A stretch of 64,000 bases of DNA from Spirochaetales bacterium (GTDB lineage Bacteria; Spirochaetota; Spirochaetia; Treponematales; UBA12059), in contig JAFGJV010000004.1 in assembly GCA_016928955.1 (NCBI GenBank), forward strand, positions 1 to 64,000, written 5' to 3'. Positions 418 through 7,627 of the stretch are shown here, one piece after another. Under the pieces are notes generated by a model. It did not search any database. It worked only from the letters and a program-made list of their open reading frames with translations, and was not told the origin of the DNA. A program made the position numbers and the translations under genes. Numbering within the stretch: the first letter of the stretch is position 1; each line of letters starts with the position of its first letter.

Positions 418-668
418 CTTTGTGACCGACAGTTGACAAAGCTTCCGACACCCTGAGGATTAAGACGAAATATCAGCAGGCCGCTGGCGAACTGGCATGT
501 GGGTTGCCGGCGGCTGCGTTTATCTGATTTTTGTTCAGCATGCCGCAGGTATTCAGGCACCTGCGATGTCCGATAATTATGAACGGGGGCTGCCTGCGGT
601 CTGTAAGTGGAAGGCCAAATGTGCCTGCGATTTCCGGCGGCGGCTTAACCCTTCAGATCTATAGGGTC

Positions 669-697
669 TTGCCAAAATCCGTGTTCTGGGCTACAGT
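669..697 (+). promoter_or_regulatory. Sigma70-type promoter for the leader peptide/Met operon
   Basis: TTGCCA (669-674), 17-nt spacer, TACAGT (692-697). Confidence 0.65.
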
Positions 698-758
698 AAC
701 GCCGACGGGCGCTGCCCGTCCTTGGCCACTCTACACAGCTGGCCGGGAAGGAGCTCAT

Positions 759-848
759 ATGTCGAAGCGCGGACAGATTTGCATTCACCTCAATTCCGCA
801 GCCTCCATGTGCATGCCCCTCATGCCCTCCTCCTTCATGATGATGTGA
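759..848 (+). CDS. Putative Met-rich leader peptide MSKRGQICIHLNSAASMCMPLMPSSFMMM (29 aa)
   Basis: AAGGAG at 748-753, 5 nt before the ATG; 6 Met codons in the last 13; ends ATGATGATGTGA; lies between a promoter and the Met operon. Confidence 0.75.
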   Translation: MSKRGQICIHLNSAASMCMPLMPSSFMMM

Positions 849-1090
849 CGCCCCGGGCGTCCAAGAAAACTGGATTCCATCCGGTAGGTTCGGCCCAGTC
901 GACGCGGGCCGGATGACGCCCGGGCGGCACACGCTCCCAAGTCGAGTTTCCATCATCCTCATCATAAGCGGGTCGATCGCCCGCCATTGGCCACGGTGCG
1001 TTTGCGCGTCCGTTCGGCAATGGCTCGCGCCGATACCGTTGCTCCCGTTGGACGACGCCTGTCGCCCGCGGGAAGGTAAAGGAGCGGCAT
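837..1090 (+). promoter_or_regulatory. Structured leader / candidate attenuator region
   Basis: 847-861 can form a local hairpin or pair (852-861) with 915-924; nested 878-884/909-915; CATCAT tracts 951-965 are complementary to the Met codons; GCTCC 1041-1045 is complementary to the RBS GGAGC 1081-1085. Confidence 0.5.
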
Positions 1091-2251
1091 ATGTCGCGTA
1101 CGGTAATAAAGATAGGCGGTTCCATCCTGGAATCGCCAACGGCCTCGATACACCTGCGGTCCTGCCTGGAACGTCATGACAAGCCTGTTGTGCTGGTCGT
1201 GTCGGCGCTAAAGGGGGTGACCGACGAGCTCCTGAAGCTGGCCGCCGAACATACGCAGGCGGCGTATGAGTTCGCGCTGGATCTTGTGGACCGGTATCAA
1301 AAGATGGCGCGCGCCCTTGATCCGGCATCATGCGCGCTTTCTGGTATAGACGCTCGGCTGGCCTCGCTTGGACGTCAGCTGAGCCTGACCCTTGCGGGCA
1401 AAGACCCTGACCGCCGTGAACGGGTGGCCAGTTTTGGCGAACGCATGTCAGCGGTGGCCGCCCTGGCCGCCTTCTCAAGTCTGGGTAGGCCGGCGAGCGT
1501 CGTGGAACCGGATGAACTTGGCCTTAAAGCCATCGGCTTGCAGAACGACGCGAGCGTGGACGTGTCGTCGTATGCTCACATCCGCGACAGCCTTGTCCAG
1601 CGGGCGGATGTGGTGGTGCCAGGATTTTACGGCGTTGGCCCGGGCGGCCGGGTCAAACTGTTTGGCCGCGGCGGATCCGATTACAGCGCGGCCGTCATCG
1701 CGGCTGCCATCGGTGCGCGTGCCTGCGTTTTTGTGAAGGACGCCGATGGCATACGCACCGCGGATCCATGCAAAGTGCGCGGCACCTCCGTGGTCAGTTT
1801 CCTGACCTATGCCGAGGCGTCGGCCCTGTCCCGCGGCGGCGCTAAAGTGCTCCATCCGAGGGCCGTGGATCCGCTCTCGGAGAGCGGGGTGCCATTGTGG
1901 ATAGAAGGACTGGACGGATCGGGGACCATGGTGGCCACGACACGCTCTGTGTCGGAACGGGGAACGTCCAAGCCGCTGGACGCATCGCCCGGGGCGATCC
2001 GGGCCATTGCCCTGTCGGCCTGTTCTGGCGGCACGGCAACGCTGACTCTGGCCGGCGACGGTGCGGGCGCCCAGGCCCTGAATGGCGTGCTGGAAATCCT
2101 CGACCTTGAGGCAGGCGGCCCGTGGAGCATCCACGGTGGGAAGGATGCCTCCGCGGTTCGGCTCAAGGTTCCCTCAGCCAGGGCCGACCATGTCCTGCGC
2201 GCCCTGCACGCGGCCCTGTTCGACCGGCGCGGATCGGAGGCGGCGTCATGA
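1091..2251 (+). CDS. lysC: Aspartate kinase
   Basis: KIGGS, VVSALKGVTD, SFGERMS, GRGGSDYSA, GIRTADP, GAKVLHP motifs; RBS AAGGAG. Confidence 0.9.
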   Translation: MSRTVIKIGGSILESPTASIHLRSCLERHDKPVVLVVSALKGVTDELLKLAAEHTQAAYEFALDLVDRYQKMARALDPASCALSGIDARLASLGRQLSLTLAGKDPDRRERVASFGERMSAVAALAAFSSLGRPASVVEPDELGLKAIGLQNDASVDVSSYAHIRDSLVQRADVVVPGFYGVGPGGRVKLFGRGGSDYSAAVIAAAIGARACVFVKDADGIRTADPCKVRGTSVVSFLTYAEASALSRGGAKVLHPRAVDPLSESGVPLWIEGLDGSGTMVATTRSVSERGTSKPLDASPGAIRAIALSACSGGTATLTLAGDGAGAQALNGVLEILDLEAGGPWSIHGGKDASAVRLKVPSARADHVLRALHAALFDRRGSEAAS

Positions 2252-3249
2252 GCGTGCTCGAAGCGTTGAATCGCGGCCCGTGCGTTTCCATTGAAGTGGT
2301 GCCGCCGGAACGCGGAGCCGGCTTGGACGAGCTCTTGCGCGCGGTGGAAGCGGTCATGAGCCACGGGCCGGCATTTGCCAGCGTCACCGATCATATGGGC
2401 GGCGCCGCCGTTGCAGAGGCTGACGGGCGCGCCGTGCTCCGGCCAGCTCGCCGCAAGCCAGGGAGCCTGGGCAGCGCCGTGGCCATACAGAAGCGCTTTG
2501 GCATCACAACGGTGCCGCACGTGCTCGCCCTGGGCCAGGACAGGTTCTCCCTTGAGGACATGCTCATAGACATTCATTACGCGGGCTTTGAGGATATTTT
2601 CGTGGTGAGGGGCGACGATAGGCGGAGCGGCCCCCGTCCACACGCCGCGCCTCCGGGCGGCGGGCTCGGCGACCAGAGGGCGGGATACGCCCACGCCGTG
2701 GACGTGGTCAGGCACGCCGCTGACTTGAACGGCGGACGGTACCTGTCCGGCAACGGCCATACAGCTCCCACGTCCTTCCAGATCGGGGTGGCCGGTTATC
2801 CGGGCAAGCATTTCGAGTCGCCCAATCCCGAGGCCGACAGTGCCCATCTCAAGGAAAAGATAGACGCCGGCGCGTCGTATGTCATTACGCAGATGGTGTT
2901 CGATCCGGACACCTACACGCGCTATGTGGAACGACTGCGGAACGCGGGCATACGCGTTCCGGTCATACCAGGAGTCAAACCGGTTACCAGTCTGTCCCAG
3001 GCTTCGTCCCTGCCCGGGGCTTTTTACATAGACGTCCCCGCTGACCTTTTGGCCAGGCTCGAATCAGCCAGGACCAGGGACCAGGAGCGGGCGGCGGGGA
3101 TAGCGTGGACGGCCGATCTTGTGGAAGCCTTGATTGGAGCCGGGGCCCCGGGCGTTCATTTCTTCACCATGGGCAAGGGCCTGGCTACAAAAGCCGTTCT
3201 AGACGCCGTCTTTGGCGGAACGCGCCTGGGCGCTGGGAGGGTCGCATGA
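2248..3249 (+). CDS. metF: 5,10-methylenetetrahydrofolate reductase
   Basis: SIEVVPP, VRGD, VAGYP, LKEKIDAGASYVITQMVFD, GVHFFTM; ATGA overlap with the lysC stop. Confidence 0.92.
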   Translation: MSVLEALNRGPCVSIEVVPPERGAGLDELLRAVEAVMSHGPAFASVTDHMGGAAVAEADGRAVLRPARRKPGSLGSAVAIQKRFGITTVPHVLALGQDRFSLEDMLIDIHYAGFEDIFVVRGDDRRSGPRPHAAPPGGGLGDQRAGYAHAVDVVRHAADLNGGRYLSGNGHTAPTSFQIGVAGYPGKHFESPNPEADSAHLKEKIDAGASYVITQMVFDPDTYTRYVERLRNAGIRVPVIPGVKPVTSLSQASSLPGAFYIDVPADLLARLESARTRDQERAAGIAWTADLVEALIGAGAPGVHFFTMGKGLATKAVLDAVFGGTRLGAGRVA

Positions 3250-6200
3250 ACCTTGAACGGCTTTTGCGCGACCATACCCTGCTGGCTGACGGTTCGACCG
3301 GCACGGCGCTTGAGGCCCTGGCGCCGGATTGGCGCGGGCCCGGCCAGCTTTTGCCCCTGGAACGCCCAGACCTGGTTCTAAAGCTCCACCACTCATACAT
3401 AGAAGCCGGCTCGGATCTGATAGAGAGCGCCAGCTTTTCATCCAGCGCGCGCAGTCTAGTCAGGGCCGGCGTTACGGTGGACACGCGCGAGCTTAACCGG
3501 GTGGCTGGTTCCCTGGTTAGGCTCGCGTGCGACCATGCATACGGGCGCGACGGGCGGCGGCGCTGGGCAGCAGGCTCCATCGGTCCCGGGGAGGAGGCCC
3601 CCAGCCTTGGCTCGGGCAGTTGGGCGGAGCTCAGGGACTCGTACCTGCCTCAGATGCTCGGGCTTTTAGACGGCGGCGTGGACTGTTTTGTCATAGAAAC
3701 CTGCCAGGATCCCCTGCAGATCAAGGCTGCCCTGGCGGCCGCGCGCGAGGCCGGGCACCGCGCCGGCAGGATAGTGCCGTGCGTGGTATCGGCCACGGTT
3801 GAGAGCAACGGCCGCATGCTGACCGGAACCAGCATGGAAGCCCTGGTCGCCATCGTCGCGCCGTACAAGCCGGCGGCCCTTGGCGTCAACTGCTCGGGCG
3901 GGCCTGACGAGTTGTCCCTGGCGCTTGGGTTGTTGGCGTCGGTATCGCCCTTTCCCTTGTCGCTCATGCCCAATGCCGGGCTTCCGGTCATGGTAGACGG
4001 CCGCACTGCCTATCCGCTCGGCCCGGACGCCTTTGCGCGGGGCACGTCAGCCCTGGCCCGCCGATACGGGGTGGCCCTGGTGGGCGGCTGCTGCGGCACG
4101 GGGCCCGAGCACATTTGCGTTCTTGACAGGCTCATGCGCGAGCGGCCAAAGCCCAGTGAGCGCGCCCAAGCACGCGCCTCCCTGGCGTCGCTGTATGACG
4201 CCCGACCACTGGGCCCAGGTCTCTTCCGGATAGGCGAACGCGGCAACGTATCCGGCTCGGCGGTGTTCAGAAAGCTCATGGCTGAGGGCAACCGAGAAGC
4301 CATGGCCAGCTTCATGGTCAAGCAGGAGGCTGAAGGCGCGGAAGCCCTGGACCTGCATGTGATGCGCCCGGGCCGCGACGAGGCGGCAGACCTTGTCGGC
4401 ATGGCGCGGGCGCTCAGGGGACGCGCGCGTTCTGCCCTCTGCCTGGATTCGACCGATCCTGAGGCCTTGGAGGCTGCGCTCAGGGAATATCCCGGCCGCA
4501 CCTTGATTAATTCGGCCAGCCTTGACGACGAGGACAAGGCCAGGCGCGTTGTTGCCCTGGCGCGGGAATACGGGGCGGCCTTGGTGTGCCTGTGTGTCGG
4601 TGCGGCGGGACCGGCCAAGACCCTTAATGAAAAACTAGGCTTGGCCCACACCTTGTACAAGCTGGCCGTGGATGGGGGGCTTGGTCCGGACGACATTTTT
4701 GTGGACACGGTGACCTTCCCGCTGGCCGCGGCGTCCAAGGGACTTAGGGGTGCCGCCAGGGCCAGCCTGGAGGCCCTGGCCCTGGTCAAGGAAAAACTGC
4801 CCGGCGTACGGACCATACTCGGCGTCGGCAACAGTTCCTTTGGTTTACCCAAGGCGATCCGGCCCGCCGTAACCGCGGTGTTTCTCGACGAGGCCCTTCG
4901 GCACGGTTTGGACGCCGCCATCATGGATGCCGGGCGCCTTCCCGACCTGTCGGCCCTGGATCCTGCGTTGGTGGACGCCGCGCGACGCCTGATCAACGCG
5001 GGCCCCACTGACGACACGGACGATGCCATGTCCGCCATCCTGTCGTTTGGTGGCGTGGGAGAGCGGACGGGCGACGAATCCGAACCCGGCCAGGCGCCTC
5101 TGCCGCCGGAAGAAGCGCTGGCGGCCGCGGTCATTGATGGAGATCCGTCGAGAGCCTATGAGTCGGGCAAGGAAGTGCTTGCTATCCAGGCGGATACAGG
5201 GTTCTACTCCCGGGTGGTGGCCGGCGCGCTCAAGCAGGTGGGAGACGGTTTTGCGGACGGAAGCATACCTTTGCCCTTGGTGCTTCGTTCGGCCGAGGCG
5301 GCGGAGAGGGCCCTGTCGTTGTTGGCCCAAAGCCAGGAGCGCGCGGACACGACCGGTGGCGTTGTGATACTGGCCACGGTCAAAGGAGACCTCCACGATA
5401 TAGGCAAAAACCTGGCTGGCCTCATCCTGGCCGGAGCCGGCTACCGGGTGGTGGACCTTGGCGTGGATGCGGGCGTGGCTGACATCCTGCAAGCGGCCAG
5501 GCAGGAAGCTGCCATGGCCATCGGGCTGTCGGGCCTGCTCATGCGCTCGCTTTCGGAAATGGAGGCGGTGGCGGGCGCCTTGGCCGACGCGGGCTGTTCG
5601 GCGCTCCTGCTTTTAGGCGGCGCCGCTGTGGACAAGTCGTATGTGGACAAACGGATAGAGCCGCTCTACCCAGGCAGGGTCATGGCCTGCGCGGACGCTT
5701 TTGAGGCCATACGTGTTCTGGACCGAGTCGATAAGAGCCAGCGGAAAAACCAGACGTCAAGTATCCCTCCGCGGGCCGTGCCCAAGCACGGCGGGCGACG
5801 TCAGCTGGACGGCCAGCGATCCTCAACGCCCGTGGTTCCGCAAAAGCCCAGGCTGCCGTGGGTGGACGTCGGCGCGTGCGGCGTTGGCGACGTGGAAATG
5901 CTCGCCTGGGACGAGCTTGGCGAGGCCCTGAATGCACGGTCCCTAATGGACACGCGTTGGGCCTATGGCAGGTCGCGGAGGGACGAAGCACGGGCCCTGC
6001 TTGACGGCCATCTTGCGGACCTGAAAAAGGAAGGCGCCCTCAAAGCCTATGTCGTGCGCGCCCTGCTAGCATGCGAGCGGGACGGCGAGACCTTGCTTGT
6101 GGAAGCGCCGGGCGCTTGGGATAGCCGGAAAGCCTTTCCGTTCCCGCGGGAACCCAGTCACGCTTTCTGGTTCTTGTCCGGACTGCCGGACGGGGTAGAA

Positions 6201-6581
6201 GGCCGGTTGCCGGTGCTTGCCGCCACGGTGGGACGCCTGCCGCTCGAGCTGGCCCTGGCCGAGAGGGAACGGGGCCGGCACGGCGCGTACCACCGCGTCC
6301 ACTGCCTGGGCGCGGCCCTAGCCGAGGCGGCCATGGAAGCCGCGCACCGGCGCTTTGCGCGGGAACTGGGCGAAAGGAAGAGCGCGGGTAGGGCGAAATG
6401 GCGACGCGTGTCCTTTGGCTACCCGCGTTGCCCGGGACTGGAACGTCAGGCCGACCTTCTAGACGCGCTGGACACCGGGCGCATCGGCCTCAGCTTGAGC
6501 GCGTCGTGCCAGCTGGTGCCCGAACTGTCCGTCACCGCCGTCATGGAACCCTATGCCGTGGGAGAAAGGGAGCCTGTATGA
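3246..6581 (+). CDS. metH: Cobalamin-dependent methionine synthase
   Basis: Hcy domain (DGSTGT, GVNC, PNAGLP, GGCCGT), pterin domain (IGER), cap, B12 motif ATVKGDLHDIGKN, C-terminal SFGYPRCP; ATGA overlap. Confidence 0.93.
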   Translation: MNLERLLRDHTLLADGSTGTALEALAPDWRGPGQLLPLERPDLVLKLHHSYIEAGSDLIESASFSSSARSLVRAGVTVDTRELNRVAGSLVRLACDHAYGRDGRRRWAAGSIGPGEEAPSLGSGSWAELRDSYLPQMLGLLDGGVDCFVIETCQDPLQIKAALAAAREAGHRAGRIVPCVVSATVESNGRMLTGTSMEALVAIVAPYKPAALGVNCSGGPDELSLALGLLASVSPFPLSLMPNAGLPVMVDGRTAYPLGPDAFARGTSALARRYGVALVGGCCGTGPEHICVLDRLMRERPKPSERAQARASLASLYDARPLGPGLFRIGERGNVSGSAVFRKLMAEGNREAMASFMVKQEAEGAEALDLHVMRPGRDEAADLVGMARALRGRARSALCLDSTDPEALEAALREYPGRTLINSASLDDEDKARRVVALAREYGAALVCLCVGAAGPAKTLNEKLGLAHTLYKLAVDGGLGPDDIFVDTVTFPLAAASKGLRGAARASLEALALVKEKLPGVRTILGVGNSSFGLPKAIRPAVTAVFLDEALRHGLDAAIMDAGRLPDLSALDPALVDAARRLINAGPTDDTDDAMSAILSFGGVGERTGDESEPGQAPLPPEEALAAAVIDGDPSRAYESGKEVLAIQADTGFYSRVVAGALKQVGDGFADGSIPLPLVLRSAEAAERALSLLAQSQERADTTGGVVILATVKGDLHDIGKNLAGLILAGAGYRVVDLGVDAGVADILQAARQEAAMAIGLSGLLMRSLSEMEAVAGALADAGCSALLLLGGAAVDKSYVDKRIEPLYPGRVMACADAFEAIRVLDRVDKSQRKNQTSSIPPRAVPKHGGRRQLDGQRSSTPVVPQKPRLPWVDVGACGVGDVEMLAWDELGEALNARSLMDTRWAYGRSRRDEARALLDGHLADLKKEGALKAYVVRALLACERDGETLLVEAPGAWDSRKAFPFPREPSHAFWFLSGLPDGVEGRLPVLAATVGRLPLELALAERERGRHGAYHRVHCLGAALAEAAMEAAHRRFARELGERKSAGRAKWRRVSFGYPRCPGLERQADLLDALDTGRIGLSLSASCQLVPELSVTAVMEPYAVGEREPV

Positions 6582-7627
6582 AGGAACGCATACCGGTAGC
6601 TGTCCTGGGGGCCACGGGCGCCGTGGGTCAGCGTATCGTTGCCATGGTGGCGGGTCACCCATGGTTCAGGCTGGATGCCGTGGGCGCGTCCGAGCGGAGC
6701 GCGGGTAAGGCCTACCAGGACGCGGCGCGCTGGCTCCTGCCTGAGCCCATGCCCGAGGAGGCGCGTGCGCTGACTGTGCGGCCCTGCGATCCTGGCGCGT
6801 TGCGTCAGCCGCTGGTTTTTTCGGCGCTGGACGCCGACGCGGCCGGCCCCATAGAGGAAGCGTTCGAGGCGGCAGGCCGCCTTGTCGTCACCAATGCCAG
6901 AAACCACCGCATGCGAGCGGATGTGCCCCTGGTGGTGCCCGAGGTAAACGGAGCGCACCTGGACCTGGTTGCTGGTCGACCGGGAGCCATCGTCACCAAT
7001 CCCAACTGCTCGACCATAGGACTGGTTATGGCGCTGGCGCCGCTCTGGGAGCGCTTTGGGCTTGAGGCAGTGTCCGTGGTGACCATGCAGGCCCTGTCCG
7101 GAGCGGGATATCCTGGCGTTCCGTCCATGGACATGATCGACAACGTGGTCCCCTTCATAAGCGGAGAGGAGCAAAAACTGGAAGCCGAACCCAGGAAAAT
7201 TTTTGGAAGGGTGACGCGGGGCACGGTTGTGCCCGCCGAGCTGGCCCTGTCAGCCTCATGCAACCGCGTGCCCGTGTCTGACGGTCACCTGCTCCGCGTG
7301 TCGGTCAAGCTCGGTGCCCGCGCACAGCGGCGGGACCTGGAAGAAGCCTGGATTCGGTGGAGGGGGTGGGAGGGCGCCCGAAAACTGCCGTCGTCGCCCG
7401 AGTTAGCGCTTGCGTACCGGAGCGAGCCGGACCGCCCCCAGCCACGTCTCGATCGAGACGCGGGCGGCGGCATGACGGTAAGCGTGGGGCGCCTGGAACC
7501 TGACAGCGTCCTGGACTACCGCTTTGCCGCCCTGGTGCACAACACCATACGGGGAGCGGCCGGAGGGACCCTGCTTCTGGCAGAGCTCGCGCTGAGCCGG
7601 GGGCTGGGATCTCTGGCCGCGGTCTAG
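6578..7627 (+). CDS. asd: Aspartate-semialdehyde dehydrogenase
   Basis: GATGAVGQ, NPNCST, QALSGAG, CNRVPVSDGH, HNTIRGAAG; ATGA overlap. Confidence 0.95.
   Translation: MKERIPVAVLGATGAVGQRIVAMVAGHPWFRLDAVGASERSAGKAYQDAARWLLPEPMPEEARALTVRPCDPGALRQPLVFSALDADAAGPIEEAFEAAGRLVVTNARNHRMRADVPLVVPEVNGAHLDLVAGRPGAIVTNPNCSTIGLVMALAPLWERFGLEAVSVVTMQALSGAGYPGVPSMDMIDNVVPFISGEEQKLEAEPRKIFGRVTRGTVVPAELALSASCNRVPVSDGHLLRVSVKLGARAQRRDLEEAWIRWRGWEGARKLPSSPELALAYRSEPDRPQPRLDRDAGGGMTVSVGRLEPDSVLDYRFAALVHNTIRGAAGGTLLLAELALSRGLGSLAAV

Follow-up and report, generated by a model that had tools for sequence, protein, structure and literature searches.

A small Met-rich ORF and a conserved three-way-junction RNA form the leader of a methionine biosynthesis operon in a Spirochaetales bacterium. 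Both were found in the window, which is the whole 64,000-nt stretch of DNA that we analyzed (contig JAFGJV010000004.1). The ORF has a biased 3' end, the RNA fold shows covariation, the phyletic range is restricted, and the genes behind the element belong to one pathway. We infer translation of the leader ORF, ribosome stalling within it, and an output step. The best explanation of the whole is a ribosome-operated amino acid sensor that unmasks the Shine-Dalgarno (SD) sequence of the first gene, and we give it a probability of roughly 50%. From sequence comparison, the element is very probably a translated, amino-acid-sensing leader. That its output is translational, through SD unmasking, is a closer call that falls just short of even in our modeling.

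The original prediction was a leader peptide whose Met codons act as a ribosome-mediated attenuator of the operon. This interpretation appears supported as far as comparative analysis goes. The Met ends were found again in relatives. It had missed the Thr codons (and few Lys codons) that accompany Met in some of those relatives, and it had also missed the covarying three-way junction against the stop codon.

Leader ORF of the window

The leader ORF lies at positions 759 to 848 on the + strand. It contains 29 codons followed by TGA, and its translation is MSKRGQICIHLNSAASMCMPLMPSSFMMM-stop. Met codons begin at 807, 813, and 822 and fill 837-845. Six of the last 13 codons are therefore Met, and the ORF ends in Met-Met-Met-TGA, as originally described. 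Given 1.9% Met among the residues of long ORFs in the source genome (G000), 6 Met per 13 codons has a binomial probability of about 1e-7. The cluster is far beyond chance. In the ORF list the peptide is visible only as the tail of a longer frame, 531..848, where the original prediction had placed it.

The signals claimed for this ORF were present. An SD sequence, AAGGAG, lies at 748-753 (+ strand), 5 nt before the ATG. A promoter-like site, TTGCCA-17-TACAGT, matches at 669-697 (+ strand). It is the sole sigma-70-like site in 300-1400, where shuffled sequences contained a mean of 0.5. Near its 3' end, the ORF carries a C/U-rich tract (825-836, + strand), the predicted partner of the SD region of the first gene. 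The structured leader, put at about 240 nt in the original prediction, measures 242 nt (849-1090) between the ORF stop and the first gene. Region 700-1100 folds at -178.3 kcal/mol with a z score of -3.34, and 0/100 shuffles were equally stable.

Four ORFs in G000 end in Met-Met-Met-stop. The conserved RNA element accompanies the window leader only (1 covariance model match). The 3 other ends, none with the element, were taken as chance.

The whole window contained no SAM riboswitch, T-box, or other Rfam family at gathering score, in keeping with the original view that neither occurs at the locus. At E<=10, region 400-1300 gave two chance-level matches only, both on the minus strand. SAM-I riboswitches had no match anywhere in G000. 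A T-box-like match was seen elsewhere in that genome, at G000:C19:10927-11158 on the minus strand (L202). It scored 64.1 bits, below the cut-off of 93, with E = 1.4e-13.

A three-way junction against the stop codon

The three-way-junction RNA occupies 849-927 on the + strand and begins within about four bases 3' of the leader stop codon. P1 pairs 849-861 with 915-926, P2 spans 869-885, and P3 spans 888-914. In our alignment of 33 loci (31 of the rows distinct), 94.2% of cells in the proposed helices were paired, compared with 88.6% in shuffles, and compensatory changes were found at 9 of the 20 pairs of the junction. No shuffle in 500 matched the observed pairing and covariation values, the exception being further pair types (1/500). 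When helix partners were shifted in a sliding control, pairing fell to 38-53%. Neither the window nor 8 representative loci matched an Rfam family resembling the element. The fold is a new RNA motif that covariation supports well.

P1 is near-invariant in sequence, whereas P2 and P3 covary freely. G-U pairs in P1 occur on the sense strand only, with GU in 11/31 sequences at two positions. P1 also contains A-U or C-G swaps that are sensible only in sense-strand RNA. P2 is absent in one subgroup, and genome G006 lacks P3 also. Besides the helices, the junction bases, the P3 loop, and a linker motif are conserved.

The linker is G-poor and lies at 939-965 on the + strand. It carries the conserved motifs AAGTCGAG (939-946) and CATCATCCTCATCAT (951-965), and a predicted helix joins 959-965 to the Met codons at 837-843.

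Three further structures were considered and not adopted. For pairing of the P3 loop with the linker motif as a pseudoknot, one compensatory case was seen by eye (G052) alongside several mismatches, and the linker was out of register in the MAFFT alignment. A hairpin of the P1 5' strand as an alternative fold was, by eye, lost under changes that keep P1. P1 as a terminator stem was followed by a U-run only in G053 and weakly in G052.

Leader ORFs in relatives

A kinase-based search of 41 related genomes retrieved 6 full-length orthologue loci. All 6 contain an upstream ORF with its stop codon directly before the same sequence block. Four of these ORFs end in Met-Met-Met-stop, and 2 end in long Thr runs and then Met. 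Across all element-bearing loci (33/33), an in-frame upstream ORF ends at the same place, one base before the conserved block, with an end that is rich in Met or in Thr (at some loci also Lys) plus Met. A lack of the Met-rich ORF in relatives, which would have counted against the original prediction, was not seen. A canonical start is present in 32/33 leader ORFs, and an SD-like motif precedes the chosen start in 24/28 loci. The stop codon is TGA in 32 of the 33 loci and TAA in the AT-richer G007. Promoter-like sites lie upstream of the leader ORF at 11/32 loci, compared with 36/1600 shuffles.

The last two codons are part of the covariance model. They were excluded from the test of codon bias, and positions -12 to -3 were scored. 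In the 33 ORFs these positions contain 9.4% Met, 20% Thr, and 6.4% Lys. The remainder of the same ORFs contains 0.8% Met, 7.8% Thr, and 2.6% Lys, and the proteome background is 1.9% Met, 4.3% Thr, and 3.4% Lys. The element loci are related to each other, so p-values overstate the case. A metagenome scan with a pattern that put no constraint on the last sense codon retrieved 23 leader ORFs, every one of which ends in Met; 19 of the 23 loci are distinct.

Three types of leader were recognized: a Met-Met-Met end; Thr runs plus Met; and, in one genus, a Lys/Thr-rich end plus Met. In close relatives (L055 and L054/L056) the leader ORFs are 48, 38, and 41 codons long, with the frame kept. The ORF of L055 (genome G002) contains a C/U-rich 9-nt unit in about three repeats. 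At L077 (G081) the leader ORF lacks a canonical start, and the N terminus of the kinase behind it is unlike that of relatives. L077 may be a decaying locus.

Distribution of the element

We built a covariance model (R1) from the conserved block and searched it against genomes of the order and the phylum. The element was present in 27/151 genomes of the same order, in two families only. The family of the window (f1) contained it in 21/36 genomes and family f4 in 5/36, and four other families contained it in 0/78. All 28 loci from the 27 genomes have an in-frame leader ORF. There were no matches in 150 other genomes sampled across the phylum.

A family-wide DNA pattern was also tried. At 6/16 places it gave chance matches in GC-rich sequence, which lacked an abutting stop codon and were rejected. 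Applied to contigs, a GC-rich pattern returned at least 120 stretches. We examined 80 of them, and the covariance model confirmed 9; a tenth, marginal one (26.8 bits) was discounted. Among the matches listed, the model-confirmed named records were MAGs labelled Treponemataceae, Rectinemataceae, Spirochaetes, or Spirochaetales, together with two unclassified records.

Genome G017 contains two copies of the element (L064 and L081); the kinase operon follows one of them and HcyBio the other. This makes a small regulon.

Genes behind the element

The operon of the window occupies 1091-7627 on the + strand. It contains an aspartate kinase-like gene (1091-2251), metF (ends at 3249), metH (ends at 6581), and asd (ends at 7627). 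The products are an AA_kinase protein, an MTHFR, a five-domain MetH, and an archaeal-type Asd. These domains bear out metF, metH, and asd in the original assignment of lysC-metF-metH-asd. For lysC they bear out the AA_kinase domain only: the 386-aa protein has this one domain (residues 3-271) and scores below all NCBIfam cut-offs. It had no match to an ACT domain. If it lacks allosteric feedback, as may be the case, this would accord with a dependence on gene-level control.

The first gene behind the element encodes aspartate kinase at 16/33 loci, MetF at 9/33, and HcyBio at 6/33 (PF01837 was confirmed in 4 of the 6). It is asd at 1/33, and at 1/33 it was not identifiable because of a contig end. 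Together with metH, these first genes make up one route, from aspartate through aspartate semialdehyde and homocysteine to methionine. In G002, where the leader is of the Thr type, the operon is again kinase-metF-metH-asd, as in the window.

To make homocysteine from aspartate semialdehyde, these spirochaetes apparently follow the archaeal-type route. In G000 the HcyBio gene (PF01837, sulfur incorporation into homocysteine) lies at G000:C27:31628-32659 (L204). No second copy of the element precedes it, and the intergenic gap there is short; in six other genomes, HcyBio directly follows the element as first gene. In G007 the asd gene (L051:8277-9911) encodes 544 aa, and both Pfam domains match in two stretches, which points to either an insertion or an extended N terminus.

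Folding and modeling of the output step

The + strand of 300-1400 contains no intrinsic terminator. Terminator-like sites were found at 3/32 loci, in non-homologous places. Lacking an intrinsic terminator, the element is not a classical trp-type attenuator. The original prediction had not noted this absence, by which the output step departs from the classical one.

The SD region of the aspartate kinase gene lies at 1074-1090 on the + strand, with AAGGAG at 1079-1084. It is sequestered in the predicted fold. The predicted helices of the window join 822-834 with 1074-1090 and 837-843 with 959-965. The leader ORF takes half or more of the SD pairing in the predicted ensembles of 27/32 loci, and all six folds that we inspected agree with this. 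Dinucleotide-shuffled leader ORFs capture the SD nearly as well (0.65, compared with 0.72 for real ORFs). The SD pairing therefore comes largely from C/U-rich, G-poor composition.

Duplexes between an ORF and its own SD region have a mean of -17.7 kcal/mol, compared with -16.5 kcal/mol for mismatched loci (permutation p = 0.006, among loci that are related). The own duplex is better than those with SD regions of other groups in only 19/32 loci. The own duplex of the window, at -26.0 compared with -20.7 on average, is among the best ranked.

We modeled a ribosome footprint along the leader ORF. In the window, SD accessibility rose 40- to 1000-fold with the A site anywhere from Met18 to the stop, and at most about 20-fold at codons 2-17. 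Across the family, a footprint at the last codons opened the SD more than 20-fold at 8/32 loci and lowered its accessibility more than 5-fold at 4/32. The minimal locus of G006 has its SD 4 nt after P1, and the modeled opening there is about 6e6-fold. In G002 no stall position opens the SD. All modeled SD accessibilities are tiny in absolute value, even where raised. SD unmasking as a picture fits the window and about a third of the loci.

Composition was also scored. The last 45 nt of the leader ORFs contain 42% C and 15% G on average. The first 60 nt of the linker contain 35% C and 21% G on average, and the first gene contains 31% C and 31% G. G000 encodes Rho (Rho_RNA_bind match, 113 bits).

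Metagenome and metatranscriptome contigs

Contigs from one DNA run and two RNA runs (other samples) match the window from 664 and carry different sequence upstream. This strain-level break in synteny falls 5 nt upstream of the -35 box. Only from 664 on is the window sequence common to related strains, so the block of promoter, leader, and operon behaves as a unit. The two metatranscriptome contigs were considered as evidence of a 3' end and rejected. They have low depth and cover 664-932 and 664-968, and the DNA contig runs on. They come from one study, their ends differ, and DNA carry-over is possible, so these contigs show neither transcription nor a 3' end.

At 84-85 of the window, several contigs (four runs) join or break with different flanks, one of them at high depth. 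Positions 1-85 have the appearance of a repeat, or of a segment that is widely shared, at the contig end.

Proposed mechanism and alternatives

We propose that the leader ORF (759-848) is translated and that its speed of translation would report the supply of Met. When charged Met-tRNA is scarce, the ribosome would linger on the Met codons at the 3' end. In relatives it would also linger on Thr codons, and in a few on Lys codons. The footprint of the lingering ribosome would cover the C/U-rich, G-poor last part of the ORF. With this tract occupied, the first gene's ribosome-binding site would be free and the operon would be expressed. Stalling at the Met codons would in this way turn the operon on.

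Once the ribosome has gone, two helices would form, one between the C/U tract and the first gene's SD region (822-834 with 1074-1090) and the other between the Met codons and the linker (837-843 with 959-965). These distant strands would be kept together by the very stable junction (849-927). When Met is plentiful, termination would be fast and the closed fold would form. Aspartate kinase would then not be translated, and Rho polarity would probably follow.

On the modeling, SD unmasking is the most likely output, and termination by Rho ranks second; the two may act together. Rho-dependent attenuation would use the same ORF as its sensor, and we hold it to be possible, with the odds clearly against it. 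The C-rich ORF end and the G-poor linker would form a split Rho loading site that flanks the junction. A stalled ribosome would mask the site and allow read-through; after normal termination, Rho would load and stop transcription. The composition of the ORF end and linker is consistent with this, as are the rarity of terminator-like sites and the rho gene of G000. There are precedents in the tna (TnaC) and mgtA (mgtL) leaders, where a ribosome at the ORF end beside a C-rich region decides Rho action. Similar logic has been proposed for terminator-less Cys leaders, in the account of them in PMC1262725. However, the gap between element and start codon is only 13 nt in G006, 32 nt in G108, and 34 nt in G081. 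Gaps this short are too small for termination ahead of the gene; polarity within it would still be possible. A footprint of roughly 30 nt is also too short to mask the linker half of the site, and G-poor composition serves the pairing model equally.

The junction may do more than hold strands together, since a passive clamp does not account for the strict conservation of the P1 sequence. It could itself be the main sensor, either an aptamer for SAM, homocysteine, or Met or a protein-binding site, with the ORF a mere helper of folding or of the ribosome. The near-invariance of P1 beside freely covarying P2 and P3 speaks for this, and conserved junction bases, P3 loop, and linker motif are typical of ligand or tertiary contacts. 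Yet the window and the 8 representative loci have no Rfam similarity, one subgroup has no P2 and G006 has neither P2 nor P3, and the Met/Thr codon bias and the fixed stop position would be left unexplained. We consider it quite improbable. Still less credible, and in our view very improbable, is a reading in which the ORF is open merely by chance and a repressor binds the GC-rich near-palindromes as DNA operators. Both P1 strands are near-palindromic DNA with CCCGGG, and open frames are common at 63% GC. But SD, start, frame, and codon bias are all kept, and the compensatory changes and the sense-strand-specific G-U (G-T) pairs and swaps of P1 rule out a DNA operator.

An extension of the ribosome-operated sensor would make the GC-rich junction an active partner of the ribosome that combines tRNA charging with a second signal. 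This would be a ribosome-coupled riboswitch that belongs to no class described so far, and we think it unlikely. With the last Met codon in the A site, the first base pair of the junction lies about 12 nt from the P-site codon. This is the distance of the mRNA entrance of the ribosome. The junction might brake the ribosome, so that decoding of the last Met codon becomes the rate-limiting step. Alternatively, it might bind a pathway metabolite or a protein.

If the ribosome-operated sensor is the true reading, spirochaetes of two families gauge their supply of Met (in some cases Thr and Lys) by translation speed. The whole archaeal-style route from aspartate semialdehyde through homocysteine to methionine would be controlled in this manner. 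A sensing ORF joined to a new fold, free of a terminator, would offer a compact natural system in which to study how the position of a ribosome sets gene output. Genome annotation gains a new RNA motif and about 50 small ORFs that had not been annotated.

Comparison with known systems

In textbooks, genes for methionine synthesis are controlled by SAM riboswitches, T-boxes, and the MetJ and MetR proteins. The S-box/SAM riboswitches and T-boxes resemble the element in their targets, metF and metH, and in their place in the leader. They differ in that the locus matches none of them and that sensing here would occur by translation and not by binding of a ligand or tRNA.

The classical leader-peptide attenuators of Proteobacteria are trpL, hisL, thrL, leuL, ilv, and pheL. 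A full-text literature search returned no leader-peptide attenuator for which reading of Met codons has been published. Like the classical attenuators, the element has a short leader ORF with an SD sequence, a cluster of codons for the end product of the pathway at the 3' end, and a place in the leader of a biosynthetic operon. Multivalent leaders are also shared: the element has Thr plus Met (and some Lys), and thrL has Thr plus Ile. Unlike the classical attenuators, the element would sense Met. It has no terminator hairpin with a U-run and no recognizable 2:3/3:4 alternative. A conserved three-way junction adjoins its stop codon, and it matches no Rfam leader family.

TnaC senses free Trp by way of its nascent peptide, at the stop codon, and the operon that it induces is catabolic. 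The leader ORFs described here differ from it in having no conserved arrest peptide, and one relative uses TAA and not TGA.

The Cys leaders of Mycobacterium, Propionibacterium, and Bifidobacterium come closer. As Seliverstov et al. (2005) describe them, they have runs of the cognate codon near the stop and no conserved terminator, and Rho was suggested as the effector (PMC1262725). The element shares these features in its cognate codons near the stop, its want of a conserved terminator, and a possible role of Rho. It differs in amino acid and phylum, and the description of the Cys leaders in that paper reports no conserved RNA fold for them (PMC1262725). In its treatment of methionine operons in Actinobacteria, the same paper gives no RNA regulation upstream (PMC1262725).

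The polycysteine short ORFs of mycobacteria have been described by Canestrari et al. as acting by translational attenuation without a terminator (10.1101/834739), and they are a precedent for the mechanism proposed here. By that description they are like the element in amino-acid-responsive attenuation without a terminator and in a sensor common to several loci of one pathway (10.1101/834739). The mycobacterial ORFs are described as leaderless and sense Cys, whereas the ORF here has an SD sequence, would sense Met and Thr, and is fused to a conserved structured RNA (10.1101/834739). SD sequestration in the spirochaete element is a prediction and holds for part of the loci. Judged against these systems by its sequence, what is new in the element is a candidate leader-peptide sensor for Met (some Thr, few Lys) that is fused to a new three-way junction and would work without a terminator.
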